A DNA stretch of 64,000 bases from Eledone cirrhosa (taxonomy: Eukaryota): contig OZ024740.1 in assembly GCA_964016885.1 (NCBI GenBank), positions 133,424,001-133,488,000 of the forward strand. Direction: 5' to 3'. Of this stretch, positions 2,487 through 64,000 are shown in pieces (positions within the stretch are counted from its first letter, which is position 1; every line of letters starts with the position of its first letter). Below the pieces are notes generated by a model. It ran no database searches, was not told where the DNA came from, and was given only the letters and a program-made list of their open reading frames with translations. A program made the translations under genes and the position numbers.

Positions 2487-2520
2487 TATTATTACTATTA
2501 TTATTATTGTTATTGTTATT
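2487..2520. repeat. Degenerate (TTA)n tract: tail/target between two tandem R4-like copies
   Basis: ttattattactattattattattgttattgttatt lies directly between the 3' UTR of copy 2 and the 5' end of copy 1. Confidence 0.85.
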
Positions 2521-5500
2521 CCTTGAATCTCAGTCATTGATGTTGGTTAACTGGAAAGTCCGTTGGATTGAATATCAAGCCACTACCTGCAGCCTCAGAT
2601 ATTCAGGACGTATCGGAGGGTTCTTGCCGTTCCAAGCAAGCATGCCTTTTGAAGCGTTCCAAAAAGCGTGAAGGGGCCGATTTTCTTTAACCATCCCTGG
2701 AAACCTTTGGAGATAGTCCCCAGTGCGCCTATGACAATCGGGATCACTTTGACCTCATGGCAGTTCCAAATCCTTTTCACCTCCCACTTTAGGTCCTGGT
2801 ATCGGTTAATTTTCTCCCTCTCCTTCTCTTGCACTCTCGTGTCGAACGGGCAGGCCACATCCACAATCAGGCACGATCTTTTTTCTTTGTCCACAACCAC
2901 CAGGTCAGGTCTATTGTGTTCCAGTTTTTTGTCCGTCTGTATCCTAAAATCCCACAGCACCTTCACCTGACTGTTCTCCATCACCGCCTCTGGCCTATGC
3001 TCATACCATTTCTCAGAATGTGGTAGATTGTTTACTTTGCACAGGTGCCAGTGGATCACCCTGCCCATCACATCGTGTCTCCAGCCCTTATAGTGGGTCT
3101 GGGCTAGGTGTTTACACTCGGACACAATGTGAGCCACAGTCTCCTCTCTCTCTCCACAGATCCTGCACAGTGGGCTAGCCTCCTCCTTGTAGATATGGTG
3201 CTTCAACCACTTCGTTTTGAGGGCCTGCTCCTGCGCAGCCATTAGCATTCCTTCTGTAGCCTTTTTGAGGTCTCCTCTTCTCAACCAGTTCCATGTCTGT
3301 GGATCTCTAAATTCAGTTTTCTCAAAGAAGGTACTATGAAGGGATTTTCCCTTAAGGCTGCTCTTCCTCCTTGATGTTATTTCCTCCTTGGATATCCCCT
3401 GGCCTACTGTCCCCTCCTTCAGTACAGCTCTGAGCATTGGCTCCTTACTATAGGTCACGTATTTGTATAGGTTGTTTTTCTCCATCTGAACACAGTCCTC
3501 TATGCTGATAAGACCTCTTCCACCCTCAGATCTCCTTAGGTAGAGTCTATCGACATCACTCCTCTTGTGGAACATGTTGTAGATAGTCAATAGCTTCCTA
3601 GTCTTCCTATCCATTTCTTTTTGTTCAGCAACATTCCATCTCAGAATTCTCGCACTGTACCTAATAATAGACACAGCTCGGGAATTTACTGCGCTTATGG
3701 CATTTCTGCTGTTCAGATGTGACTTCAATACGCTCCTTACTCTCCGAATGTATTCAGTTCTTAACAATTCCTTCATTTTTTTGTTCTTTATGCCATCAGC
3801 CTCCAGAACGCCCAAATACTTGTATCCTTCCTCAGAGTCAATTTCCTTTATCATCTCACCTGTTGGTATCTGGATCCCGTTACTTCTGCTCAACCTACCC
3901 CTCCTCATCACAATGACTCCACATTTACCAATACCAAACTGCATACATATATCACTGCTGAAAATACGGACAGTGTCAACAAGCACATCCAACTCCTTCT
4001 CACTTTTCCCGAAGAGCTTAAGATCGTCCATGAAGAGGAGGTGATTGATGGTAAGCTCTCCCCTTCCCAACTTGTATCCTGCTCTCACTTTTCGCAGCAT
4101 AATGGTCAAGGGCATCAGGGCAAGGACAAACAACAGAGGGGACAGGCTATCTCCCTGGAAGATACCTCTCTTGATCTTCACGCTTCCCAAGGATACTCCA
4201 GTTGATGTCAACTCTGTCTCCCAGGACCCCATACTCCTGCCCAGCAACTGTCTGATGTTATCTGCCACCCTGAAGATCTCCAGGCTTTTGGTGATCCAGG
4301 AATGAGGCACCATGTCAAATGCCTTTCTGTAGTCTATCCATCCCATGGCAAGATCAGTGTGTCTCCTCCTGCAATTCCCCATTACCATCTTATCAATAAG
4401 CAACTGGTTCTTTGTACCACGTGACTTCTTTCGGCATCCTTTCTGTTCGTCCGGCAACAAGTTGTTTGTGTGGAGGTGATGGTAGATTTCCTCAGACACA
4501 ATGCTCGTCAACAGTTTCCACATTACGGGCAGACATGTGATAGGTCTATAGTTGGTAACATCATTACCCTTGATTCGGTCTTTCATTATCAGAACTGTGG
4601 TACCTTTTGTCAACCACTCTGGCACCTCACCCGACACCAAGCAGTCATTGAACATGGCCGTCAGCTTCGGGTGGAGGGATGTTAAATGTTTAATCCAATA
4701 CCTCTGCACACCATCTGGGCCTGGTGATTTCCAGTTGGTTAGTTTTTTGGCTTGCCCCTTAAGAGTTTCAACTGTGATACTCAAATCAGTCTGTTGCTGT
4801 GCCTGCTCATCGATCTCCCTCTGTACTGTCTCAATCCACCCTGCCTGGGCATTGTGTCTAACATCCTGCTCCCATATTCCTCTCCAGAATGTTTTAGCTT
4901 GTTCCGCCCCAGGGATCAAGTCGTTGCCTCTTTCTTTCCCCTCAAGCTGTCCAAACAGCATCTTGTGGTTGTTGTCGAACATGCGGTTCTGTTTATACTG
5001 ACTGACTCTGTTCTCGTATCGCCTGATTTTGGCACTCTTTGCTACAATGCGTTGCTTCAATTCCTCTATGATAATATTTAGCTTTTTACTCCTAGTTTTG
5101 TATTTTATTTCCAGTCTATTTTTAGTGCCTATGTTTTTTAGTGTCCCATTCAGTAGTGACTCAAGCTTTCCTATGTCATTTCTCATTTCCTCGATTTGCC
5201 CACTCAGTCGCTTCTTCCACCACGGCTCTGCTCTTTCTTGTCTGTTGTTTCCTCTCGCTTTTATACCAAGTAGTTTCCTCACCGTATTTGCTGTTGCTTT
5301 GAGGATATTGTTGCACTGGTGAAGACTCCTCGCCTCAAGGTATGGGATGACTTTGTTTACCTTAGCTGTTGTTTCTTTTAACTTTTTCCTGTCTACAAAT
5401 CTTAGGTTCATAGGTCTCCCACTATCATTGTTCAACTCATCTACCACTAAATTTAGGATGTCAACCGAATCTTGTCCTAGCCCGTCAGCATTCATCTCCT

Positions 5501-6665
5501 CAGTGGCCGTATCTCTGTTCCAGGTATTATTTATCTCAGTATTCAGATCATTGTCTGCTTCGGGTGGTTCCTCCGTTCTCAGGACCTCCTCACCTTCATT
5601 TCCCGCCGGCTCGCTTGTCTGGCATACTACACCCGCCATCTCCAAGCCATTCTCTCTGCTCAGTTCCTCCAGTTCCAGCTCGCCTATCCACCCATTAGTT
5701 CTTATTACCCGAGCCTGCCCGGCCAATTTTTGTTCATCTAATTTAAATAAACCAATCTCGTTCCAGATGTTATGCATCCGTCTCCTGTAGCCCCTCTCCT
5801 TGGGATTACTTTTCAGGTAGCATTGCATAACAGTTCTATTCAATTCTTTCGTCCAGTTGGTTCTGGCCCCTTTCCTTCTTCTTCTTCCTCCAACATCAGC
5901 AGTATTTGGTTGACAGTCAGGTTCCTGCTGCTGAGCCAGGGGGCACCTGTCGGGTGAGAGTCTGTCACATGACGTTCTAGTCTCCATTTCACCGTTATTC
6001 GAACTGTTTATGTTCGATATTTAAACACTCTTATCGAGGATTGGCGAATGTATGTTTACATAGCCATCTGTGGATCCGCCATCCCACTTGGCCCTTGTGT
6101 GGCATTATCACCACGCTGTATACGGACACACATAAACAAACAAACACACGGGCAGAAAGGGCCCCAAAAATGAATAAGCATAAGTTTCATTGTAATGTAG
6201 TATTCGAATGTCTGACTTAGTTTTTGTTTTTTAAGTTTTACTTTTTCCCCCCCTCTTCTCTGTCCGTCCGCCTGCTTCTCTCTTCATTCTTATTTTCTTT
6301 ACGTTTTTGGGGTGTCTTTTTTTGTTTTTGTTTTTCTCTGTTTCTTTTTCTCGTTTTTTGCTGTTGTTGCTGTGCTGCTTTTGTTGTTTGTTTTTTCTTT
6401 TTTCTTTTGAGTCTATCTATATATTTTGATGCCTTCCTCTTTGTTAGTAGTAGGAATTCTATAATGTGGAAGTGGCAGCCAGCAGAGACTGGCGGCGTTG
6501 GCGATACTGAGACAGTGGTGGTGGTGATGTCGATACCGAGGCAGTGGTGGCGGTGATGCGACCGTATTACTGTAGTGATGGTGCTGTAGCGGTGGCAGCA
6601 GCAGTGAAGGAGTCAAGGGGTGGTGGCGGCGGTGATGGGATAGTGGTGGTAATGATGGCCGTAGT
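2521..6665 (-). mobile_element. R4/Dong-like non-LTR retrotransposon, family B copy 2 (ORF intact, leader 5'-truncated)
   Basis: Single RT+RLE ORF, short 3' UTR ending in (TAA)n, and a leader homologous to 1162-1850. Confidence 0.93.
2595..5987 (-). CDS. 1130-aa reverse transcriptase with restriction-like endonuclease (R4/Dong-type ORF)
   Basis: N-terminal W-T-x-E-x-N...CY...GY..RM...W Myb-like motif; RT motifs KSPGPDG, YRPITCL, WIDYRKAFD, QGDSLSPLLF, LFMDD; CCHC knuckle CRIC..ETVAHIVSEC; RHD; RPD..D..EKINRY PD-(D/E)xK endonuclease. Confidence 0.95.
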   Translation of the reverse strand: METRTSCDRLSPDRCPLAQQQEPDCQPNTADVGGRRRRKGARTNWTKELNRTVMQCYLKSNPKERGYRRRMHNIWNEIGLFKLDEQKLAGQARVIRTNGWIGELELEELSRENGLEMAGVVCQTSEPAGNEGEEVLRTEEPPEADNDLNTEINNTWNRDTATEEMNADGLGQDSVDILNLVVDELNNDSGRPMNLRFVDRKKLKETTAKVNKVIPYLEARSLHQCNNILKATANTVRKLLGIKARGNNRQERAEPWWKKRLSGQIEEMRNDIGKLESLLNGTLKNIGTKNRLEIKYKTRSKKLNIIIEELKQRIVAKSAKIRRYENRVSQYKQNRMFDNNHKMLFGQLEGKERGNDLIPGAEQAKTFWRGIWEQDVRHNAQAGWIETVQREIDEQAQQQTDLSITVETLKGQAKKLTNWKSPGPDGVQRYWIKHLTSLHPKLTAMFNDCLVSGEVPEWLTKGTTVLIMKDRIKGNDVTNYRPITCLPVMWKLLTSIVSEEIYHHLHTNNLLPDEQKGCRKKSRGTKNQLLIDKMVMGNCRRRHTDLAMGWIDYRKAFDMVPHSWITKSLEIFRVADNIRQLLGRSMGSWETELTSTGVSLGSVKIKRGIFQGDSLSPLLFVLALMPLTIMLRKVRAGYKLGRGELTINHLLFMDDLKLFGKSEKELDVLVDTVRIFSSDICMQFGIGKCGVIVMRRGRLSRSNGIQIPTGEMIKEIDSEEGYKYLGVLEADGIKNKKMKELLRTEYIRRVRSVLKSHLNSRNAISAVNSRAVSIIRYSARILRWNVAEQKEMDRKTRKLLTIYNMFHKRSDVDRLYLRRSEGGRGLISIEDCVQMEKNNLYKYVTYSKEPMLRAVLKEGTVGQGISKEEITSRRKSSLKGKSLHSTFFEKTEFRDPQTWNWLRRGDLKKATEGMLMAAQEQALKTKWLKHHIYKEEASPLCRICGEREETVAHIVSECKHLAQTHYKGWRHDVMGRVIHWHLCKVNNLPHSEKWYEHRPEAVMENSQVKVLWDFRIQTDKKLEHNRPDLVVVDKEKRSCLIVDVACPFDTRVQEKEREKINRYQDLKWEVKRIWNCHEVKVIPIVIGALGTISKGFQGWLKKIGPFTLFGTLQKACLLGTARTLRYVLNI

Positions 6666-14750: not shown

Positions 14751-14935
14751 GGGCGGGGGATTGGCAGTATCGGTAGAGGGTCGGACGCCATGATTTCCAG
14801 CATAGTTACATCCCTTTACGATCTGAGTTCAAATCCCGCCGAGGTTGACTTTGCCTTTCATCCTTACGGGGTCGATAAAATAAAGTACCAGTAATGCACT
14901 GGGTAATTGCTGGCCTTGTGCCTAAAGTAGAAACA
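14751..14935 (+). mobile_element. tRNA-derived SINE (main family) with 18-bp TSD
   Basis: A box tggcagtatcggt, B box gagttcaaatcc, central gcctttcatccttacggggtcgataaa; TSD attattttcctgaataaa at 14733-14750 and 14936-14953. Confidence 0.9.
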
Positions 14936-15067
14936 ATTATTTTCCTGAATAAACATATTTGACCTTTGCCATTACGGCATAAATATTAATGTATCTAAGA
15001 ACACAGTCGTGTCAAATTTGTATATGTCCTTCCTATTTTTAGATTTTGTGGAAGGTACATATAGAGG

Positions 15068-30686: not shown

Positions 30687-30872
30687 AGGGCGGTGGATTG
30701 GCAGTATCGGTAGAGGGTCGGACGCCATGCTTTCCAGCATAGTTACGTCCCTTTATGATCTGAGTTCAAATCCCGCCGAGGTTGACTTTGCCTTTCATCC
30801 TTACGGGGTCGATAAAATAAAGTACCAGTAATGCACTGGATAATTGCTGGCCTTGTGCCTAAAGTAGAAACA
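30687..30872 (+). mobile_element. Main-family SINE inserted in the PLE 3' region, 16-bp TSD
   Basis: TSD attatattctacaatg at 30671-30686 and 30873-30888. Confidence 0.92.
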
Positions 30873-31618
30873 ATTATATTCTACAATGTATTAATTTGGT
30901 TTTCTCTTATATTAAGCCTTTGATCTTTTTTTCTATAGCCTTAGATTTTCGCTCAAAACTTCGTAGGTTTTGTAAACAAATTATGACGTCATATGTTTTT
31001 CTACGTTTATAAATCTTTCTAGCAATTTCCTTTATTTACTTGTTGATATTAAATAAAAATTAAACAGTATACCCCACATATATAGATTTTTACTAGACAT
31101 TTTTTTATTTTGACATAGACAGACTATTTTTATTTTTATTTTATTTTATAAAAATCTTTTTTTATATTTATTTTATTTTATTTTATTTTATTTTATTTTA
31201 TTAATACATTTTTACACTTCTTAATCCAATTTTTAGTATTTAAACCCAATATAAAATAATATAACCAGTTTCTATATTTAGAGCTCTAATATTTGAATAC
31301 CGTCTATAATATTCGCACATACACCTCATCAATTTACTTGTTAACCATTATTTACAGCTGTTTTCATTTTGACACCGTTCCTCATCAAAAGTCTCTCTCT
31401 CTCTCTATTTCTCTTTCTCTTTCTCTCTCTCACCCTCTCTTACTTTTTTCTCCTTTTTCTTCCTTTCTTCTCTTTCTTTTTCCATTTTCTCCTCGTCTTT
31501 CCTTTCTTCTATTTTCCTATCTATTTCTTACTATAGTATTAACACTTATATTTTTGCCATTTGTAGACTTAACACTTTCCTGTAAACAAGTGCTATTATG
31601 CCTTATATCATGTTACTT

Positions 31619-41463: not shown

Positions 41464-41640
41464 TTGGCAGTATCGGTAGAGGGTCGGACGCCATGCTTTC
41501 CAGCATAGTTACGTCCCTTTACGATCTGAGTTCAAATCCCGCCGAGGTTGACTTTGCCTTTCACCCTTACGGGGTCGATAAAATAAAGTACCATTAATGC
41601 ACTGGGTAATTGCTGGCCTTGTGCCTAAAGTAGAAACAAT
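41464..41640 (+). mobile_element. Main-family SINE
   Basis: Near-identical to 14760-14935; ends aaagtagaaacaattatt. Confidence 0.92.
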
Positions 41641-42373
41641 TATTGTATTAGTGTGTGCGTTTATTGTTTTGTGTCGTTTATTAAAGTTGCCCTCTTTTTG
41701 AAGAGCATTGTGAGGTGCTGTAAGTTGGGCGCAAATGGTTGACGTGGAGCCATAAACTCCACAACGGCCATATTCGTTTAGTATCTAATTTATAAATCTC
41801 ATCGGCCGTTTGTAGATTATACTCATGTTTACATGACTTTTGTTTGCTAATGATGACAATGATTTAAATATTAGGGATTTTGTAATATACTATTGGTAGT
41901 CGTTTGTGGCTTCGTATAATATAGTTTTTGTTTTGTCTCATCAGCTTTTTGAAAATGTGTTCTTTTATCTTATAGTTATTATACATTTGATTTTATATTT
42001 ATAATTTTCATAATACGAACGTATGTGTATGGTAGAAAGCATGTTATGCCTGATGGATTTATAGCATAATTCTATGGCTTAGCATTATTATTATTCAACA
42101 TCTAGAACACTAGAAACACCACACATGGCAATGTATGAAACTATATACATTATATGTACGTATAATGAACATACATTTACTCTAGCAATGAGTATGTCAC
42201 GTTGTAATCGTGTCACAGATGACTCCACAACAATCTAAGCGCAGTGAATACCTTTTTCTCTCTTCACTGTAAACATAACTTAATCTTGCTAAGAGTAAGT
42301 CCTCATACAGAAAATTCTCATAGATTTTGTAAATGGTCTAAACTTGTTAATGCTTATGTACATGGAAAGAAAG

Positions 42374-50175: not shown

Positions 50176-50186
50176 TATTATTATTA

Positions 50187-50362
50187 TTGGCAGTATCGGT
50201 AGAGGGTCGGACGCCATGCTTTCTAGCATAGTTACGTCCCTTTACGATCTCAGTTCAAATCCCGCCGAGGTTAACTTTGCCTTTCATCCTTACGGGGTCG
50301 ATAAAATAAAGTACCAGTAATGTACTGGGTAATTGCTGGCCTTGCGCCTAACGTAGAAACAA
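50187..50362 (+). mobile_element. Main-family SINE flanked by (TTA)n
   Basis: Near-identical to the other copies; TTA tracts on both sides. Confidence 0.92.
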
Positions 50363-50413
50363 TTATTATTATTATTATTATAAGTAGAAACAATTATTAT
50401 TATTATTGTTATT

Positions 50414-53400
50414 ATTGAATGCCATAGTTGACGGAGGCTCGACTCTGTAAGGTATAGTAATTTTTAACCGCTATAACATTGTAAATTGTTTAAAACTTTA
50501 ACCAAATTGTAGATAAAGACACCCTCCTCCTCCTCGTGAGAGGGGTCTTTCTGCCCGTTATTTGGCTCTTTGGGGTTAAATAACCGCTTAATGGGGGTTT
50601 TGTGCCCAATATTCATTTTAAACCAAAAAATACATGGCTACAGAAAAGAATTTTCACAAGTCACTCTCACTCATTCCGTCTACTTCTTCCTCAATCGTCA
50701 CTACATCAGAGAGAAGATTGTCTCTCTCCCTCCCGTCTTTTTCGCAAGCGACGCCAGTAAAAAAAGAAAAATATAGTTTCTGATAGTTTCCAAGAGCACG
50801 TGCATACCGTGGAACATTTCTCCACGACGACGACAACGACGAAAAATGTGTGCGGTAAATACGGAAAGCTATTTCATTTGTCCGACGTCAAGAATAATAG
50901 CAGTAGCAGCCGTAATAACAGCAGCAGCAGCAACAGTGACAAGGAAAACAATAGTAGCAGCCACAACAGCATCAGCAGCAGCATAAACAAAAGCAGCAGC
51001 ATAAACAACAGCAGCAGCAGCAACAACAACGAGAACAACAGCAGCAGCAGCAACAACAACAACAACCACAGCAACAGCGGCTGCGGCAGTCGTAGTAACA
51101 GCAGCAACAACAAAAGTAATAGCAGCTCTGACGACAACAACAACAACAACAACAAAGAAAAACCAATCTCGTTTGGAGGTATCGCAAAGAACCTGGAAAC
51201 CATCCTTATAACAAATGAGGAATTACAGGAAGCAAAGAAGATGGTGACGAAAACCTGACACCGAGCAATCTGCAAGGCAGCCGAAATATTTTTCGAAACC
51301 CAACAGCACTGTACGGTCGCGTAATGTACATTAAGCTCGAAATCCCGTAGGGTTGAAAGAGCCACAGAGGCTCAAATACAAAAGGCCTTAGGGTCTGTGT
51401 GGTAGCGAAAATCACATATCATCTGAGTCAAGAAATATGCCACCGTGGACGTGCTTTTTTCCACACCCCAGGTGGCAAAGGCTCAATCCTTAGTGACCCT
51501 AAGGAGCGAGGAAATGGTGTTTGTACCCTCCTACTGCGGACAAAAAATTGTGCGGGTCAAACTGATCCAACTCACCCCCGGGAGGCGCCTTCTTGGCTGG
51601 CCGCGTCTGTCCTCGCCCGAATCGAGAACAAAACAACTGTACTGAAAGTACAGAAAAAAGTAAGAGAAGATTGGGTCGGCAACTCCATTGAGATGTTAAT
51701 CCAAACCAACCAGGAGTTCATCGAAGCTATCCCGGATGTGATAGACTTCGATAACGGCACTCAACTGCCCATAAGTGTTGAGCGCAAACGCCCGAAATGC
51801 TTTCGCTGTGGATCAAAGACTCACCTCAAGGCTTTCTGTAATGAGAAGACCCTGAGAAAGGAGAAAACCCCCTTCTTCCGAAACCAACACTACTGCTACC
51901 AGCAACAGGACAGGCGGCAACCAGGAAGGATAGGGTCGACCATCGTTACCTAGCGGCAGCCCTGAGGGCGGCTGGCTTTGGGCCCGTCTTCAGAGGGTGG
52001 ATCGCTGCCATGCACAGCGACATCTGCTCTGTGGTGAGAGTGAACGGTCACCTTTCGGAACCGTTCAACATCATGCGCTTGGTCCGCCAAGGATGTCCCC
52101 TCTCGTCCCTCTTGTACGTATTGACAATCGAGCCATTTCTGCACAAACTGGAGACGTTGAGTGGGGTCCCGTGCGAACTAGGATGCGGTGTTCCGTGTCA
52201 GCATATGCGTAGGATGTCACCGTAGTGGTGTCGAACGCCAAACACATCGAGGCGATCGGCACTACACTAAGAGAATACGAAGCGAAGACAGGAGCAATGA
52301 TCAACCAGGAAAAGTCAGTGGGCCTGCAGCGCGGCACATGGAGAGACAGGTCCATGCCGTCCAACAGCGTCGTCGGGCGCTGGACGGACCGATTAAATTC
52401 CTAGGGGTCTGGTTCGGTCCGGACCTCCAGACGGACAAAAACTGGGACGAGGTGACGAGCAGGGTGGTTTCTCTCAACCAGAAATAGGCAGAGAGGAAGC
52501 TATCCCTGAAAGGTCGAGCGGAGGTGGCTAACGCGTACATCGCGTCCGTCATCTACTACCGCCTGACCGTCGTACCTTGTCCTAAGCCCCGCCTGACTGC
52601 GCTGGAGCGTTTGCTCTTTCGCTTTTTGTGGAAAGGACACACTCCGATGGTCAGGCGGTCCATCTGCTGTCAACACCCGCTACGTGGAGGGCTGGGAATG
52701 CCATGGCTGATGATGCGCAGACACGCGCTCAAGCTACGACATCTCCACCTCTTCCTCGACGGGGATCAGGTATGGTCGCCGTTTGCTAGACAAGTCTTTC
52801 CCCAGCTCGTCTCCTTGACGGAGCTGCAGTCCTGGGTCAAGCGAAGACCGAAAGGGAGCGCTTGGAGACTGGAATGTCTTCAGGCGCTCACATCCCTCGA
52901 CCAATCGGGCAATGTGATCGGTGGAAACTCCAACTTGGCTTTCTATAGAGGATTAGTGGAGGAGAAGAGCGACGACGTACTTGGAGAAACTCGAGGTGTC
53001 GACGAAAATTACTTGTCAATCTCTTCGGAAGGACTTTCGGGCCGGAGCCTATGGACAACTTCCAGAAATCCCTGGCCCGGCAGTGCTACCAAGGAGCTTT
53101 GCCAGATCGGGATACACTATACAGGCATGGAGGTGCCGTCAACCGGGCATATCCGAGATGCGCGCAGGGCGAAGAAAGCGTCCTGCACGCACTCGTCCAG
53201 TGACCGAGCATTGTTGACTTGTGGGTTTATGTCGAACACCTGCTGTCACGTGTGGGACGGATCCAGCTATCAGCTGAGTCCATCGTCAGGATTTCCCCGC
53301 CCTCTTCCTTTAGCCGGGAAGTGTAGGCAGTTTTTATCTGTCTGGTGGCCATGGCAAAAGAGATAGTATGGTGGACACGTTTGAAAGGGCTGAAGACAAG

Positions 53401-53810
53401 CACTTGCCTCTTCGGTGATACCCTGATTAACTTTTTCAAATTTCATTTGAAAAGGAAAATCAGGGTAGAGAGGGAAGTGCTCTCTTCCCAGCATTTTGTT
53501 GAAAGATGGGTGAATGAAGCAAGTATGGCCCGAGTGAAAGGCCTACTCTGAGTATGTGTCTCTTAATAAAAGGTGGAAAACTGGGAGAGGGCACTTGCCC
53601 TGGTGGTCAGGGTCACTGTGGCCTTTTAATGGGCTTTCTCCACAAATGTTCCTCGGAAATCTCCCCCCTATTGGGGAGTTTTTCATTGTTAATTTTTATT
53701 ACATCCTCTGTTTTTTTTACACGCAGAAATGCCCATTTGTACCGTCCTGTATTGTCCTGTAATGTCCTTAATGTCTACTTTATGTAAACCCTTGTGGTTA
53801 ATAAAGAAAA

Positions 53811-53811
<1 letters not shown>
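50414..53811 (+). mobile_element. Tx1/L1-clade LINE copy 1, both ends present, 2.6-kb internal deletion
   Basis: 5' end matches 58788 onward; ORF1 with CFRCGSKTHLKAFC zinc knuckle; RT C-terminal half (RQGCPLSSLLY, KFLGVWF, GGLGMP); AATAAA at 53800 then (ATT)n. Confidence 0.9.
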
Positions 53812-53868
<57 letters not shown>

Positions 53869-53953: not shown

Positions 53954-54140
53954 AGGGCGGTGGATTGGCAGTATCGGTAGAGGGTCGGACGCCCATGCTT
54001 TCCAGCATAGTTACGTCCCTTTACAATGTGAGTTCAAATGCCGCCGAGGTTGACTTTGCCTTTCTTCCTTACGGGGTCGATAAAATAAAGTACCAGTAAT
54101 GCACTGGGTAATTGCTGGCCTTGGGCTTAAAGTAGAAAGA
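53954..54140 (+). mobile_element. Main-family SINE
   Basis: Full-length match to 30687-30872. Confidence 0.92.
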
Positions 54141-54149
54141 ATTATTATT

Positions 54150-57100
54150 GTTCTTCGAGTCTCAGCCATTGATGTTATTTAACTGGAAAGTTGGTTGAAA
54201 TGAATATCAAGCCGCTACCTGCAGCCTCAAATATTCAGGACGTATCGGAGAGTTATTGCTGTTCCCAGCAAGCATGCTTTTTGAAGTGTTCCAAAAAGCG
54301 GGGCTGGACTAACTTTCTTTAACTATCCTTGGAAACACTTTGAGATAGTACCTAGTGCGTCTATGACAATCCGGACAACTCTGACTTCATGGAAGTTCCA
54401 AATCCTTTTTACCTCCCACTTTAAGTTTGGTATCGGTTAATTTTCTCCCTCTCCTTTTCTTGCACTCTCGTGTCGAATGGGCAGGCTACATCCACAATCA
54501 GGCACAATCTTTTTTTCTTGTCCAAAACCACCAGGTCTGGCCTATTTGGTTCCAGTTTCTTATCCGTCTGTATCCTAAAATCCCACAGCACCTTCACCTG
54601 ATCGTCTTCTATCACCGACTCTGGCTTATGCTCATACCACTTCTCAGAATGTGGTAACTTGTTTACTTTGCATAGGTGCCAGTGGATCACCCTATCCATC
54701 ACATCATGTCGCCAGCCCTTATAGTGAGTCTGGGCTAGGCGTTTACACTCGGATACAAAGTGAGCCACAGTCTCCTCTCTCTCTCCACAGATCCTACACT
54801 GTGGGCTAGCCTCCACCTTGTGAATATGGTGTTTCACCCACTTCGTTTTGAGTGCTTACTCTTGCGCAGCCATTATCATTCCTTCTGTAGCATTTTTAAG
54901 GTCTCCTTTTTTTAACCAGTTCCATGTCTGTGGAACTCTAAATTCAGTTTTCTCAAAGAAGGTACTATGAAGGGATTTTTCATGAAGGTTGGTTGTTATT
55001 TCCTCCTTGGACATCCCCTGGTCTATTGTTCTCTCCTTCACTGCAATTCTGAGCATTGGCTCCCTACTTGTTGAGCATTGGCTCCCTACACGTATTTGTG
55101 CAGATTGGTTTACTCCATCTGAACACAGTCATCTATGCTGATAAGACCTCTTCTACCTTCAGATCTCTTTAAGTAGAGTCTATCGACATCACTCTTGTGG
55201 AACATGTTGTAGATAGTCAATAGCTTCCTAGTCTTCCTATCCATTTCTTTTTGTTTAGCAACATTCCATCTCAGAATTCCCGCACTGTACCTAATAATAG
55301 ACACACCTCGGGATTTACTGCACTTATGGCATTCCTACTGTTCAGATGTGATTTTAATACGCTCCTTACTCTCCGAATGTATTCAGATCTTATCAATTCC
55401 TTCAAATTGTTGTTCTTGATGTCATTCTGCCTCCAGAACACCTAAATATTTGTATACTTCTTCAGTGTCAATTTCCTTTATCACCTCACCTGTTGGTACA
55501 TGGATTCCGTTGCTTCTGCTCAATTTACCCCTCTTCATCACTAGGACTCCACACTTATTAATACCAAATTGCATACATATATCACTGCTGAAAATACGGA
55601 CAGTGTCAACAAGTACATCCAACTCCTTCTCACTCTTCAAAAAGAGTTTAAGATCGTACATGAAGAGGAGGTGGTGATGGTAAGCTCTCCCTTTCCCAAC
55701 TTGTATCCTGCACTTACTTTTCGCAATATAATGGTCAGGGGTATCAGGGCAAGGACAAACAACAGAGGGGACAGACTGTCTCCCTGGAAGATACCTCTCT
55801 TGATATTCACGCCTCCCAAGGATTCTCCACCCGATGTTAATTCTGTTTCCCAGGACTTCATACTTTTGCTCAACACTGTCTGATGTTATCTGCCACCTTG
55901 AAGATCTCTAGGCTTTTGGTTATCCAAGAATGAGGTACCATGTCGAATGCCTTTTTGTAGTCTATCCATCCCATGGCAAGGCCAATGTGTCTCCTCTTGC
56001 AATTCCTCATTACCATCTTATAAATAAGTAGCTGGTCTTTTGTACCACGGGACTTCTTTCGGCATCCTTTCTGTTCCTCCCTTCAACAGGTTGTTTGTGT
56101 GGAGGTGATGGTATATTTCCTCAGACACAATGCTTCTTAACGGTTTCCACATTACGGATAGACATGTGATAGGTCTATAGTTGGTAACATCATTACCCTT
56201 GAATCGGTCTTTCATTACCAGGACTGTGGTACCTTTGTCACACGAGATCAAGCAGTCATTGAACTTGGTTGTCAGTTTCGGGTGGAGGGATGTTATATTA
56301 TTAATCCAATAGCGCTGCACACCATCTGGGCCTGGTGATTTCCAGTTGGTTAGTTTTCTAGCCTTCCCTTTAAGAGTTTCAACTGTGATACTCAAATCAG
56401 TTTGTTGGTGTGCTTCTTCACTAATCTCCCTTTGAACTGTCTCAATCCACACTGCCTTATCATTATGTTCAACATCCTTCTCCCATATTCCTCTGCAGAA
56501 TGTCTTAGTCTGTTCCGCCTCAGGGATCAAGTCATTGCCTCTTTCTTTCCCTTCAAGCTGCCGAAACATCTTCTGTTTGTTGTCAAACATGCGGTTCTGT
56601 CTATACTGACTGACTCTGCTCTCATACCGCCTAATCTTTGCACATATTGCTACAATGCGTTGCTTCAGTTCCTCTATGATAATATTTAGCTTTTTCCTCC
56701 TAGTTTTGTACTTGATTTCCAGTCTATTTCTAGTGTCTATATTTTGTAGTTTCCCATTCAGTAGGGACTCAAGCTTTCCAATGTCATTTCTCATTTCCCT
56801 GATTTGACCACTCAGTCGTTTCTTCCACCAAGGTTCTGATCTTTCTTGTTTGTGGTTTCCTCTCGCTGTTATGCCAAGTAATTTCCTCACCGCATTTGCT
56901 GTTGCTTTGAGGATATTGTTGCATTGGTGAAGGTTCCTCGCCTCAAGGTATGGGATGACTTTGTTCACTTTAGCTGTTGTTTCTTTTAAATTTTTCCTGT
57001 CTACACATCTTAGGTTCATAGGTTTCCCACTATCATTGTTCATTTTATCTACCACTAAGTTTAGGATATCAACCAAATCTTGTCCTAGCCCGTCAGCATT

Positions 57101-58787
57101 CATTTCCTCAATGGCCGCATCTTTGTTCCAGATGTTATTTATTCAGATCATTGTCTGCTTCGGATACTTCCTCCGGTCTCTCAACCTCTTCACCTTCATT
57201 TCCCACTGGCTCGTTTGCCTGGCATAATCCACTCTCCATTTCCAACCTAACCTCTCTGCTCAGTTCCTCCAGTCTTATTACGTTAGGTCTTATTACCCGA
57301 CTCTGCCCGGCCAATTTTTGTTCATCTAATTTAAATAGACCAATCTCGTTCCAGATGTTATGCAGCCGTTTCCTATAGCATTTTTCCTTGGGTTACTCTT
57401 TAGGTAACATTGCATAACAGTTCTATTCAATTCTTTCGTCCAGTTGATTCTTGTCCCTTTCCTTCTTCCTCTTCCTCCAACACCAGCAGTATTTGGATAA
57501 CATCCAGGTCCCTGCTGCTAGGCCAGGGAACACCTGCTGACTCACATGACGTTCCAGACTCCACTTCACCGTTATTCGAACTGTTTAGGTTCGACATTTA
57601 AACACTCATATCGAGGATTGGTGAACGTATGGTTACATAACCACCGGTGATTTCATCACCCTAGTGATTTCATCCCCCCACCCCCCGTGATTTTAGCGTG
57701 GCACCATCATGCTGTAGAAGAACATAAATAAATAAATAAATAAATAGATCAAAACTTTTAAAAATAAACATGAGTTTCACTGTAATGTTTGAATGTCCGA
57801 CTTGGTTTTTTTTTGCTTGTTTGTTTGTTTTTTTTCCTTTGCGTTTTTCGTCTTTCAAGGTCAGTAACATCGGTTACTAGTGTTGTTGTTGCTGCTGCTG
57901 CTGCTGCTGCTAAGGGAAGTAGGGATTGTGTTCAAAACTGTTGACATTTGTGTTTGTTGTTGCATTTGTTTCTGTCTGTGTTATGTTCTATAATTTTTCG
58001 ACTTGTTGCTTATCATTTGGCAGTATCGGTAGAGAGTCGGACACCATGCCCTGAAGCACAGAGCTACGTCCTCCTACGGTCCGAGTTCAAATCCAGCCGA
58101 GGTTAACCCCGCCCCTCATCCCTACGGGGCCGACAAAACAAAGCACCAGCAACACACCGAGGCAATTGCTGGATCCGTGCCAAAAGTAGAAACGATTATT
58201 ATTATTATATTATAGTTTAGATTTGTCATCGTTTAAACTAAACATTTTGAGAGAGTTTAGAGATACAACAACAACATTATTTTGGTGTTGTTGTTGTTGT
58301 TAGCTGTTTGACCGAGTCACTAACCCAGTCTATTTATATATGTTGATACCTTATTCGCTTCTTTTCATGTGTAGCGGCACTACCACCATCCCTCTCTTAA
58401 GTGGTGAGGGAATAGTGGTGGTAGCGATGATGCAGTGTCGGCGGTGAGGATGGGATAGCAGTACTATAGGAATGGTGCTGGTTTGTATTTGGCTAGATTT
58501 TGTGTGGTAGTGGTGATGGTGATGGTGGCTCCGGCGGTGGTGGGCTGGTGGTGAAGTTAGTTGGCTGTTGTTTTCTAGCCATTTTCTTTTCTGACTATAA
58601 CATTTCTGGTACAAAATTAAATATTAAATATTGGAGCCCTATGCCTATTGTGATGCGTTGCCACTTCCTGGGAGTTAAGACTGATATTTCATGCTCCAAT
58701 TGTAATAAGAATTATTGTATCACAATTGTTTAAATAAGTAAAAAATCAAAAACTTACGGGAGCGATTCCATAACACTCTATCCACCT
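54150..58787 (-). mobile_element. R4/Dong-like family B, full-length but disrupted copy 3 (ORF remnant 54227-57564)
   Basis: ORF fragments colinear with 2595-5987; start ATG changed to GTG; leader ends homologous to 1162-1400 and 2250-2470. Confidence 0.9.
58018..58195 (+). mobile_element. Main-family SINE with clustered T>C changes, inside the R4 leader
   Basis: Aligns end to end with the other copies, but many central T residues are C. Confidence 0.9.
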
Positions 58788-59006: not shown

Positions 59007-61160
59007 ATGGCTACAAAAAAGAATTTTCACAAGTCACTCCCACTCCTTCCGTCTTCTTCTTCCTCAATCGTCATTACGTCAGAGAAAAGATTGTCTCTCT
59101 CCCTCCCTTCTCTAAATGTGGTGTCGCCTCTTTCGCAAGCACCGCCATTAAAGAAAAAGAAAAATGTAGTTTCTCGTACTTTTCTTCATCAAGAGAACGC
59201 GCGTACCGTGGAACATTTCTCCACGACGACGACAACGACGAAAGATGTGTGCGGTAAAAACGAAAAGCCATTTCATTCGTCTGACGTCATGAAGAATAGC
59301 AGCAGCAGCCGTAATAACAGCAGCAGCAGCAACAGTGGCGAGGAAAATATTAGTAGCAGCCGCAATAACATCAGCAGCAGCATAAACAACAACAGTAGCA
59401 GCAGCAACAGCAACAACAACAGCAGCAGCAGCAACAACAACAACAACAACCACAGCAACACCGGCGGCGGCGGTCGTAGTACCTGCAGCAACAACAAAAG
59501 TAACAGCAGCTCTGACGACAACAACGACAACAACAACAAGAAAGAAAAACCAATCTCGTTTGCAGGTATCACAAAGAACCTGGAAACCATCCTTATAACA
59601 AATGAGGAATTAACGGAAGCAAAGAAGATGGTGACGAAAACCGGACACCGAGCAATCCCCAAGGCAGCCGAAAAGTTTTTCGAAACCCAACAACGCTGTA
59701 CGGTCACGTACCGTACAGTAAGCACAAAATACCGTAGGGTTGAAAGAGCCACAGAGGCTCAAATATAAAAAGCCTTAGGGTCTGTGTGGCAGCGGAAAAC
59801 GCATATCACCCGAGGCAAGAAATATGCCACCGTGGACGTGCTTTTTGCCGCACCCCAGGAGGCAAAGACTCAATCCTTAGTGACCCTAAGGAGAGAGGAA
59901 ATGGTGTTGGTGCCCCCTACTGCGGGAAAAAAATTGTGAGGTTTAAACTGACCCAAGTGCCCCCCGGGATGGCCCCTTCTTGTCTGGCCGCATCTGTCCT
60001 CGTCGGAATCGAGGACAAAACAACCGTACTGCAAGTACAGAAAAATGTACGAGAAGATTGGGTCGGCGCTTCCATTGACCTGTCAATTCAAACCAACCAG
60101 GAGTGAATCAAAGCTATCCCGGATGTGATAGACTTCGATAACGGCACTCAACTTCCCATAAGTGTTGAGGGCAACGCCCGAAATGCTTTCGCTGTGAGTC
60201 GAAGACTCACCTCAGGGCCTTCTGTAATGAGAAGACCCTGAGAAAGGAGAACACCCCCCCCCCCTTCCGAAACCGGCTCCAGGACAGGCGGCAAGCAGGA
60301 CAGACAGCAAGCAGGAAGGATAGGTCCGTGGCAACCATACCCACGCCACGAAAATCAAGAACAGCAGCTGCAGTGGAAGTATTAACAACAACAACAGTAA
60401 TACCAACTGCAGCTGCAACAGAGACTCCACTGCAACCGTCACCAACAAGAACAAGTGAAAGAGTGGAGCTGGTACCCCTCCCCGACCTCACAGAATCGGA
60501 CATGGAGTGTGAGATGGGAGAGGGATGGCAAAAGGTCGCAAGAAGGCACAAACGCAGAAGCAGCTCATCGTCGCCTTCGAAAAGGGAGGAAATAAATGAA
60601 AAAAGGGTAAAGGCTACTAAAAGAGACTTACAGCAGCAACACCACCAATACCATCACCATCCACACTAGCACCACCATCACCACCGGCGGCAACCACATC
60701 GCAAACAACAACACCTTCAACACCACCACCACAAGCACCAACATCGCAAACACAACAACAAAACACACACACCCAGCAACAACGACAAGAAAATAGCAGA
60801 ACCACGCGCCACCCCCAGAAAAACAAATGCACAGCAATAAATACACACAAGAAACTAATGACTTACATAATTGAACACACAGATATTTCACAGCACGACT
60901 ACATAATGCCAGCACCAATCAAAACACCAACGGACATAAGACTGGTAAGAATAGCACAGAAACAATACACAAACATTAAAACGAAATTCCCCAACGCAGT
61001 TGGTGATTTCAGAGACCAAGGAGGGACACTGAACCGGAGAGTATATTCGGACATATCACAGAAGAGCCGACGACCAGCCGAAGTGACGATTCAATGGTCC
61101 CTTCACCAGACGAACAAGTGAAAAGGGATGGAGAAACCATCCTTCCTCTACGAGAAGTAA
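59007..61160 (+). pseudogene. Tx1 ORF1 (N/S-rich N-terminus, CCHC knuckle, T/Q/P-rich tail), disrupted
   Basis: MATKKNF start, (AAC/AGC)n tract, aaatgctttcgctgt...cac...tgt knuckle at about 60181-60226; stops and frameshifts. Confidence 0.75.
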
Positions 61161-61199
61161 GGTAAGTGGTCTCTCCTATCTTTTCCTCTCCATTTCAAT

Positions 61200-64000
61200 A
61201 TGACCTCACTCAGAATAGGCAGCATAAATGCGCGTGGCTTGGATGTCATTGAAGTAGGGTCACCTGCTCAACGACCTCAGGTAACTAAACATAGATGTAG
61301 TGGCCATCAGCGAAACCAGAATCTACGAAGCACGCGTCTTCGCACCGATCTTCGGCGGCTACGATGTGTACGCATCTCCAAGCCGTCCTGGATCGGGGGG
61401 AGGAGTTGCTGTGCTTTTTCGGAGAGGTTTGGATCTCGCCATACGGACCATCTTCCTGGACCCAGAAGGTAAGTTGGTGGTGCTGGACGTGACCAGCGGA
61501 GACGGGCAAGCTTTCAGGCTAGTGGCCGTCTATGCCCCGACAGGAGCAGGGCAGCCTGATTTCTTCCGGCGTCTGGAGATCTTTCTTGGAACGTCCCGCT
61601 CCTTAGTGTTAGGGAGCGACTGGAACGGGATCTTAGATGTACGCTGGGACTGTGTGGGATTAGAGAATAGGGGAGGAGGGTACAAGAGCCACACCAACCT
61701 GCTCAGGCGTTTTGAACTGTCTGACGGGTACCGATTGGATTTCCCGAATGTGCCAATGTGGAAATCGCATAGGGTCATCCAGTTCATATCTAGATAGAGT
61801 ATTTTGTAGAGAAATAGATAGGTCTAGCATAGGCTGTTCACAATTCAAGATAGTCAGTTACACGGACCACAAATGCGTGATCTGTGTGCTTGACTTAGAT
61901 AGGCTTCATAGACGAGGACCCGGCTACTGGAAGCTAAACGCGTCCTTACCAGCGCGCAAGCCCTCCAGAGACCGGATTAGCGAACTAGTTAAGCGGGCGT
62001 TGACGGGGGCCATCGTCAACAACAAGTGGGGGTTTGCTCTGAAAAGAGCGATTAGAATAGAATCCATTAGGTTTAGTAAGGCTTTAGCAATAGAGAAAAA
62101 TAGAGCAGAGGGAGAACTAGTTAGAAGATTAGACGAGGCGCTTAGCAAAGGCATTGCGACCGACGTGCTTGCGGCGAAATTGGCCCTTGACCAATTTTTC
62201 AATGCAAAGCACGAAGGCTGCGTTGTCAGAGCAAGGGTGCGTGCTCTCAGACACGAGGGGACGAAAGCCGTTCAATGGGCCCGAGTGGCGGAGGCGCGTC
62301 GTGGCAACAAAGCCACGATCCGGTCTTTGGTGGACCACGACGGGCGCATGCTACTCGATCCCGGGCAAATGTGTGAAGCTTTTCAGCGACACTTCGCTCA
62401 GCTGTTCGGGGGCAGTGGTGGGCCGGGTCGAGAGATGGACTTTAGTGTCTACCTCGACGGGCTGCTGCGGCTCTCGGCCACTGAGGCGAAGTGTTGCGAA
62501 AAGCCGATAACAGCCGCTGAAGTAAGGGAGGCAATGACTGGCTGCACAAGGGGTAAATCGCCTGGTTTGGATGGTCTGCACTATGAACTTTACGTACAGA
62601 TGCCAGACTTGTTCGGAGGCCTCTTGGCGGACGTCTACTGCAACTGGCAACAGAACGGGAGAATTCCCAGCTCTGTGAGCCGAGGAGCGGTAGCGCTGCT
62701 GAGAAAGGATTCGAACAAGGGGTATAACATAGATAATTTCAGGCCCATAACTCTACTAAACACAGAGTTCAAGATTTTGGCCAAGGTGCTAGCAAAGAGG
62801 TTGGCGCTTATCGTTGGTGGTCTGGTGGGAGAGGCGCAGACATGCGCCATTCCCGCCAGATCCATCCATGAAACCTCCACCTCATGCGATACATCATAGA
62901 GAGGGTAGCTAGGGAACCTGGCACGGGTGGGTCCTTGATCAATTTAGATCAGTCGAAAGCCTTCGATAGGGTCGACCATCATTATCTGGCGGCTGTCCTG
63001 AGGGCGGCTGGCTTTATGTACGTCTCCAGAGGCTGGATCGCTGTTATGCACAGCGACATCTGCTCTGTGGTGAGAACTGTTCAACATCATGCGCTCGGTC
63101 CGCCAAGGATGTCCCCTCTCATCCCTCTTGTACGTATTGACTCTCGAGCCATTACTGCACAAACTGGAGACGTTGAGGGGCGTCCCGCGTGAACTAGAAT
63201 GCGGAAGATCCGTGTCAGCATATGCGGACGATGTCACCGTAGTGGTGTCGAACGCCAAACACATCGAGGCGATCGGCACTACACTAAGAGAAATCGAGGT
63301 AGTGACAGGAGCAATGATCAACCAGGAAAATTCAGTGGGCCTGCAGCTCGGCACCTGGAGAGGTAGGTCCATGCCGTCCAACAGCGTCGTCGGACGCTGG
63401 ACGGACGGACCGGTTAAATTGCTAGGGGTCTGGTTCGGTCCGGACCTCCAAACGGACAAAAACTGGGACGAGGTGACGAGCAGGGTGGCGTCTCTCACCC
63501 AGAAATGGGCGGAGAGGAGGCTATCACTGAAAGGTCGTGCGGAGGTGGCTAACGCGTACATCGCGTTCGTCATCTAATACCGCCTGACCGTCGTACCTTG
63601 TCCTAAGCCCCGCCTAACTGCGCTGGAGCGTTTGCTCTATCGCTTTTTGTGGAAGGGACGCGCTCCGATGGTCAGGCGGTCCATCTGCTGTCAACACCCG
63701 CTATGTGGAGGGCTGGGCATGCCGTGGTTGATGATGCGCAGGCACGCGCTCAGGCTACGACGTCTCCACTTCTTTCTCGACGCGTCTTTCCCCAGCTCGT
63801 CTCCTTGACGGAACTGCAGTCCTGGGTCAAGCGAAGACCGAAAGGGAGAGCTTGGAGACTGGAATGTCTTCAGAGGCTCACAGCGCTCGACCAGTCGGGC
63901 AATGTGATCGGTGGAAACTCCACCTCGGCGTTCTATAGAGGATTAGTGGAGGGGAAGACCGACGACGTACTTGGGTAAACTCTAGGCCTCGACGAAAATC
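61200..64000 (+). pseudogene. Tx1 ORF2: APE endonuclease plus RT, frameshifted
   Basis: SINARGL, AISET, VYAPT, GSDWN, LDRVF, TDH, WKLN, KSPGLDGL, FRPITLLNTEFKILAK, LDQSKAFDRVDH, RQGCPLS, YADD. Confidence 0.92.

Follow-up and report, generated by a model that had tools for sequence, protein, structure and literature searches.

An antisense SINE passenger within an R4/Dong-like element leader

The window, a stretch of 64,000 nucleotides of Eledone cirrhosa DNA taken from a genome of 3.0 Gb, contains a SINE on the plus strand within the 5′ leader of a non-LTR element that runs along the minus strand (Table 1), which confirms the placement given in a preliminary description of this DNA. Because the SINE and the element lie on opposite strands, T>C changes in the SINE correspond to A>G changes on the RNA of the element. 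A search of Rfam with the SINE returned no match, and positions within it are given here on a reference built from 59 SINE pieces. The 3′ end of the carrier falls within the ATT tail of a SINE.

Table 1. Positions of the carrier element, its SINE passenger, control SINEs and related elements; plain numbers are window positions and L-prefixed entries are other loci
Feature	Position	Strand	Remarks
R4/Dong-like element	~58786 down to 54141	-	Carrier of the SINE passenger
Body of R4/Dong-like non-LTR element	54141..57711	-	ORF broken; 86.6% identity with the copy at 2506-6072
Predicted GT-AG intron, 1046 nt, in the 5′ leader	57712..58757	-	Prediction from splice-site conservation
Predicted exon 1	58758..58786	-	~16 nt short of the 5′ end in fuller copies
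SINE passenger	58017..58196	+	Reference positions 10-188; antisense to R4 RNA
Block of 13 A>G on R4 RNA (T>C on +)	58050..58122	-	13/13 lineage C founder changes
Block of 10 A>G on R4 RNA	58130..58176	-	10/11 lineage A founder changes
(ATT)n tract in the R4 leader	58197..58212	+	Recurrent SINE landing site; vacant in many sister copies
Open 1141-aa reading frame in a related R4-like subfamily	2595..6020	-	Basis for classing the carrier
Sister SINE without edits at the 3′ end of R4	53965..54146	+	Control
Unedited free SINE	14751..14941	+	Control
Further unedited free SINEs	30688-30877, 41464-41644, 50186-50370		Controls
Second R4 subfamily with its own antisense SINE in the leader	L164:1444-1569; L168:1444-1566		15-16 T>C
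Putative RTE-like LINE leaders with antisense SINE pieces	L175:4342-8433, L176, L177, L178, L181		5-15 T>C; at least 3 insertions
Inverted-SINE hairpin family	L141:1283-1600; L154, L166, L185		Small, non-autonomous; RTE-like tail

The 1141-aa ORF of the related subfamily contains an RVT_1 domain and a weak zf-RVT hit, has R2 elements as its nearest solved proteins, and carries a C-terminal CCHC finger together with a REL-type motif that was read by eye. TAA tracts lie at the 5′ ends of the full-length copies examined and also at 3′ ends, which points to insertion into (TAA)n. Elements of the R4/Dong group are reported to encode a single ORF with reverse transcriptase (RT) and REL-type endonuclease, with (TAA)n as the target of Dong (PMC7998251); the window element is alike both in the RT and REL-type ORF of its related subfamily and in its (TAA)n target, and we refer to it as R4/Dong-like, a name that reflects structure and target site. 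The leader of the related subfamily at 2595-6020 carries no SINE. A second SINE landing site is found inside the R4 ORF (window-equivalent 57141-57143; loci L094, L110, L144, L149 and L151), where five copies with differing starts are all unedited. The window also contains a plus-strand LINE at 52501-53860 and 59020-64000, which we take to be Tx1-like; its tail closely resembles the SINE tail and is followed by (ATT)n, and this LINE may be the mover of the SINE.

The R4 leader contains the predicted intron. Its donor reads GTAAGTT in 32/41 listed loci and its acceptor CTACAG in 62/71; the GT-AG sites are conserved, are accompanied by a pyrimidine tract, and are also kept in the diverged subfamily in the window (near 2440, 1307 and 6115). 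The predicted intron is retained in every R4-like copy examined, and a search for intronless copies with the predicted exon junction gave 0 matches, using a pattern of which both halves are exact in only 22/115 loci (~19%). These data point to an R4-like element with a retained predicted intron: either its template is unspliced RNA, or its leader undergoes no splicing; unspliced RNA would be the template only if the predicted intron is truly spliced. The arrangement resembles that of Penelope-like elements, for which intron retention and an unspliced RNA template have been reported (PMC8557442), and our literature search returned no description of a leader spliceosomal intron for R4.

Inherited T>C clusters at a recurrent landing site

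Relative to the reference, the window SINE has T>C at 23 of its 49 T sites, along with 8 other substitutions and one inserted base, such that T>C makes up 23/31 substitutions. These changes span 127 nt (58050-58176), and their excess has a binomial P of ~1e-25 under the 2.1% T>C rate of SINE pieces elsewhere (n=81, a set partly chosen for likeness to the edited copy). The dense cluster first described as 18-20 T>C changes in about 130 nt therefore stands, with a slightly higher count. T sites in TC comprise 8/25 of the surviving T sites counted vs 1/23 of those edited; the initial remark that many surviving T residues lie in TC applies to roughly one in three of them.

The C-rich sequence is not a consensus error, given that a C-rich 26-mer from it occurs at 34 genomic places. 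A public contig across 58042-58129 matches without a single difference. In a second study, raw DNA reads of at least 95% identity extend over 58128-58171, with a depth of ~7 in X4 and ~3 in X5, although these reads may derive from sister copies. The comparison with raw DNA suggested in the preliminary description, in which T would have pointed to an error, thus returned C in both contig and reads. That description also raised a free C-rich SINE subfamily outside R4 leaders; none was found, as all 30 of the 30 inspected 26-mer matches lie in R4 leaders and are bordered by both R4 leader flanks. The unedited SINE core has 198,173 occurrences. The C-rich feature is genuine DNA, a property of an R4 subfamily rather than of a SINE subfamily.

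A flank motif matched 274 copies of the R4-like subfamily (hence at least 274 copies with a leader); among 100 of these, 83 were newly taken in 80 stretches, 15 were already in the set and 2 were left out; the resulting set comprised 130 distinct loci, 112 with a leader. An edited passenger was present in 38 of the 80 loci sampled regardless of SINE content. SINE pieces at the (ATT)n site lie the same way, antisense to R4 RNA, in 176 of 177 cases. A tree of 103 loci was estimated from SINE-free flanks only (nine of the leader loci, which had no flank, were left out). In this tree the carriers of insertion A form one clade (49 rows, SH-aLRT 100) and those of B another (20 rows, SH-aLRT 99); C falls inside A, as D does inside B, and 34 further copies have vacant or private sites; the group labels were taken from a first tree, so clade support is not an independent test, and the SINE itself was outside the alignment. 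The inherited insertions were told apart by their junctions, with A starting at SINE reference position 101, B at 116 and D at 89, and C being full length.

The rate of T>C per T site was 472/1136 in lineage A (45 pieces, 41.5%), 117/309 in B (20 pieces, 37.9%), 155/485 in C (10 pieces, 32.0%) and 109/336 in D (13 pieces, 32.4%), where six pieces whose junctions had escaped the filter were assigned manually to B or D once their T>C changes had been seen, and A excludes, on the basis of junction or host clade, five unedited pieces that start much as A does. The same-site control of 87 other pieces had T>C at 15/3152 T sites (0.5%), and private pieces at the (ATT)n site (n=84) had 15 at 3004. 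Among the majority-shared changes of the four lineages, which we treat as founder changes, T>C accounts for 40/43, compared with 77/773 in the background. The changed sites and the SINE backgrounds differ among the four lineages. Further changes were gained stepwise: position 115 is T>C in 17/45 A pieces, and positions 97, 132 and 137 are T>C in two C copies each. Two near-identical R4 loci 155 kb apart (L059 and L060) are likely a segmental duplicate that is counted twice in lineage A. One more inherited insertion, F (L082:1312, L087:1300 and L125:1305), is full length, and none of its 148 T sites is changed to C; its three copies have unlike 5′ ends and a common T>A at reference position 116. 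F is inherited yet unedited, indicating that an element can pass through RNA and acquire no edits. The R4 copies with an unedited or differently edited SINE at this site that the preliminary description had proposed to look for are present as nearly unedited private pieces, lineages A-D and F.

All changes in the window copy can be traced to these lineages. Its cluster comprises one block with the founder changes of C and another with those of A (Table 1), and 0 of the 23 T>C changes are private. Most C copies have a full SINE followed by the A fragment in tandem, and the window SINE is a collapse of this tandem of the full-length C insertion and the older A 3′ fragment, with the join between reference positions 115 and 123. 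The two founder sets mean that the cluster records at least two earlier editing episodes. A single event in the window copy, as originally envisaged, is ruled out, since all 23 changes were inherited from two previously edited insertions. Locus L002 appears to be a second tandem collapse, slightly further on. The founder edits of lineage C cover only positions 43-115, skipping 10-42 and 116-188 despite the presence there of sites favored in A, B and D; this extent may mark that of the pairing partner.

The antisense SINE also contains a cryptic splice donor (window 58120-58128, SINE reference 113-121) that resembles the donor of the element itself. This cryptic donor is weakened by edits in the founders of C and D, by truncation in B, by the T>A in F, and in 17/45 A pieces, possibly reflecting a selective filter on source elements.

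Neighbor preferences, other carriers and alternative explanations

The preliminary description had attributed the cluster to ADAR and called for its spectrum and neighbor bias to be compared with a SINE reference; T>C dominance and avoidance of a 5′ G both emerged. Dense A>G clusters on one strand, the footprint of ADAR, are found in the window copy (23/31) and among the founder changes (40/43), and the change on the sense strand of the element is A>G and not the G>A left by APOBEC-type enzymes. On the R4 RNA strand, the fraction of sites edited by 5′ neighbor was 24/39 for U, 17/32 for A, 8/27 for C and 3/16 for G, which is the order reported for all metazoans (PMC9989829). The avoidance of 5′ G in the first R4 subfamily (3/16 vs 49/98 edited, p=0.029) was replicated in ten pieces from other insertions (6/50 vs 89/218, p=7e-5, excluding three sites fixed by the search motif), although sites within a lineage are interdependent and these p-values are generous. 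A 3′ G, the weaker neighbor preference of ADAR in most species, was associated with editing in the first subfamily (16/24 vs 36/90, p=0.023) but not significantly so in the replication set (p=0.13); a 3′ A has been reported for invertebrate hyper-editing (PMC5625713).

The flanks of the SINE show no overall bias, with T>C over A>G per site on inner branches standing at 1.05 for the intron and at 0.60 for the ORF portion, and ratios near 1 rule out an element-wide A>G bias. One A sub-lineage (L061, L077, L078, L101 and L102) shows clustered T>C changes in intron sequence beyond the SINE (window-equivalent 57811-57966 and 58398-58538), where T>C accounts for 7/9 and 10/18 changes on two branches; this suggests editing against antisense R4 RNA or a local structure. 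One may postulate that no editing enzyme was involved and that the changes reflect selection or a general A>G bias of LINE replication, whether from RT errors or strand-biased damage. The intron clusters beyond the SINE would be compatible with such a bias, and the weakened cryptic donor in B, C, D and F provides a hint of a selective filter. The flank ratios speak against this scenario, however, as does the fact that the bias tracks the 5′ neighbor order of ADAR and recurs in unrelated carriers, where it is found in a stem and not in its loop (see below), and one splice site cannot yield 40/43 changes of a single type. We consider an explanation of this kind very unlikely.

A looser T>C motif had 67 matches in the genome, of which a hand tally placed 61 in retroelement carriers: 51 matches are in the R4 leader, two in a second R4 subfamily, five in LINE leaders that we take to be RTE-like from the look of their ORFs (with L161 assigned through shared flanks only) and three in an inverted-SINE hairpin family, while four are without an identified carrier and two are weak. 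Wherever the direction of the carrier could be read from its ORF or tail, the SINE runs antisense to it, and on the carrier RNA the change reads as A>G; this applies to R4 subfamilies 1 and 2, to the RTE-like leaders L146/L173 and L169/L171, and to the hairpin family. Strand-biased A>G clusters in other LINE-carried SINEs, which had been suggested as a further check, thus exist in the second R4 subfamily and in the RTE-like leaders. Heavily T>C-changed SINE pieces with no identified carrier (6-20 changes in their matched parts) are found at L147, L150 and, twice, at L152, where the two pieces lie in inverted order ~600 nt apart; simple repeats adjoining L147 also appear T>C-shifted.

In the hairpin family, two SINEs face each other head to head within an AT-rich palindrome, giving a long stem (z=-12). 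Both arms have A>G changes on one strand, and the loop is spared: in the full-length arm of L141, 15/23 sites are edited in the paired part vs 1/18 in the loop (p=1e-4), and other copies have 11/24 vs 1/17 and 8/25 vs 1/16. The full arm has 11 changes in L166, 15 in L154 and 20 in L141. This stem-limited editing is the strongest sign of a deaminase specific to double-stranded RNA, and it argues against the editing of cDNA during insertion of the SINE itself. No sense-edited free SINEs were found with two sense A>G motifs, whose 1 and 3 matches all belong to the hairpin family; these motifs caught one and two of the three hairpins then known, and the search was therefore not exhaustive.

These results bear on a second alternative, in which ADAR deaminates nascent cDNA in an RNA:DNA hybrid (or R-loop) at the insertion of the SINE itself, with LINE RNA unneeded. 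ADARs can edit DNA in hybrids on model substrates (cited in PMC12925331), and this process would also yield T>C on the SINE sense strand; the 67 T>C motif matches, compared with 1 and 3 for the sense motifs, and the four matches without an identified carrier would fit it. Yet it predicts edits in any new SINE, and the 84 private same-site pieces have only 15/3004; with 61/67 matches in carriers, the sample points instead to edits in passengers carried by RNA. It also leaves unexplained both the stepwise gains after insertion and the A>G changes of the sense arm that are restricted to the hairpin stem, and we regard it as hardly credible. A C-rich SINE subfamily that inserted or converted the passenger, or an assembly error, is suggested only by the appearance of a single copy, and is so improbable that it can be set aside given the 30/30 inspected matches in R4 leaders, the four lineages with distinct changed sites and SINE backgrounds, and the C form carried by public contigs and reads.

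Proposed mechanism and relation to known systems

The explanation that we favor, with a probability of roughly 0.88 as judged from sequence comparisons, is that the window T>C cluster derives from ADAR A-to-I editing of LINE RNA that was fixed in germ-line DNA by reverse transcription. Strand, spectrum, neighbor bias, inheritance within lineages, same-site controls and the hairpin family all support this core of the preliminary description. SINEs landed repeatedly, in antisense orientation, in the (ATT)n tract that the leader contains. Within the LINE RNA, the antisense SINE would then have paired with sense SINE sequence into a long duplex, in which ADAR may have deaminated up to half of the adenosines on the LINE RNA. 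Reverse transcriptase would have read inosine as G, and the edits would thereby have entered DNA, presumably in the germ line. Edited copies would have remained source elements, which they could do because the changes lie outside the ORF, and their sub-lineages have gained more T>C changes.

The pairing partner was probably free SINE RNA acting in trans, a view to which we lean slightly; read-through into a nearby inverted SINE copy is possible and appears less likely. Folding of the antisense SINE upon itself was considered as a substrate and rejected, as its z value relative to shuffles is -0.05 and its longest helix is 12 nt. Pairing of the antisense SINE with the leader extends to ~14 nt, and no inverted partner longer than 27 nt at 70% was found inside the R4-like element. 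A duplex with free sense SINE RNA has a rough estimate of ~-345 kcal/mol for the unedited sister and -277 kcal/mol for the edited copy read as G, values that come from different copies. Edits on antisense passengers and not on free sense copies would be expected if sense RNA were in large excess, and editing of the rarer, antisense strand only is the pattern that strand imbalance is said to produce (PMC13445718). Octopus hyper-editing is described as among the strongest (PMC5625713), and repeats in squid as edited in all tissues (PMC9068888). Editing of intermolecular duplexes is reported to be rarely found in human cells (PMC13445718), human L1 RNA is reported to be unedited (PMC5224506), and intermolecular duplexes are regarded as ADAR substrates of importance in some lineages (PMC9989829).

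Avian retroviruses provide a close parallel. Rous-associated virus as well as avian leukosis virus are reported to undergo A-to-G hyper-editing that is fixed by reverse transcription, with ADAR-type A>G changes at up to about half of adenosines, passed to DNA by RT, and also within an inverted repeat (PMC12925331). These are exogenous LTR viruses, whereas the case described here involves a germ-line non-LTR family with a foreign passenger SINE, in which the edits are inherited and extended. APOBEC-edited LTR retrotransposons of vertebrates likewise have clustered, strand-biased deaminase marks in genomic copies, but these are G>A changes made through cDNA deamination, in contrast to A>G on the RNA strand, a need for duplex and non-LTR carriers here; that APOBEC screen reported invertebrates as devoid of such marks (PMC4866542, PMC2873906). 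ADAR hyper-editing in metazoans and cephalopods shares an occurrence in young repeats, clustering, a preference for 5′ U or A and avoidance of 5′ G (PMC5625713, PMC9068888, PMC9989829). It differs in being described in RNA only, while here the marks are in DNA and the R4 passengers have no inverted partner within the element. A literature search, mostly outside subscription journals, turned up no account of ADAR-type edits that had become fixed in non-LTR lineages of the germ line. The present locus contributes repeated independent events at one site, controls in the form of vacant, private and inherited insertions, inheritance through source elements, and the lack of a partner within the element.

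RNA editing is normally transient, and here its marks would have become heritable DNA, repeatedly, in elements that then made dozens of copies. Because vacant, private and inherited insertions occur at one position, this RNA-to-DNA route is testable from genome sequence alone. We tentatively offer a broader interpretation, which the sequence patterns would allow and which we hold at somewhat less than even odds: ADAR may repeatedly act as a mutagen on active LINE lineages in the germ line, with free SINE RNA serving as a guide in trans on LINE transcripts that carry an antisense SINE. Edits written in cycle after cycle would loosen the duplex and weaken the cryptic donor, so that edited lineages keep spreading, and their copies would constitute a dated fossil record of intermolecular germ-line editing on intron-retaining LINE RNA. 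Our results bear on the dispute over whether intermolecular duplexes are real ADAR substrates, and they would imply that retrotransposon RNA is a target of ADAR in the germ line or in the early embryo.
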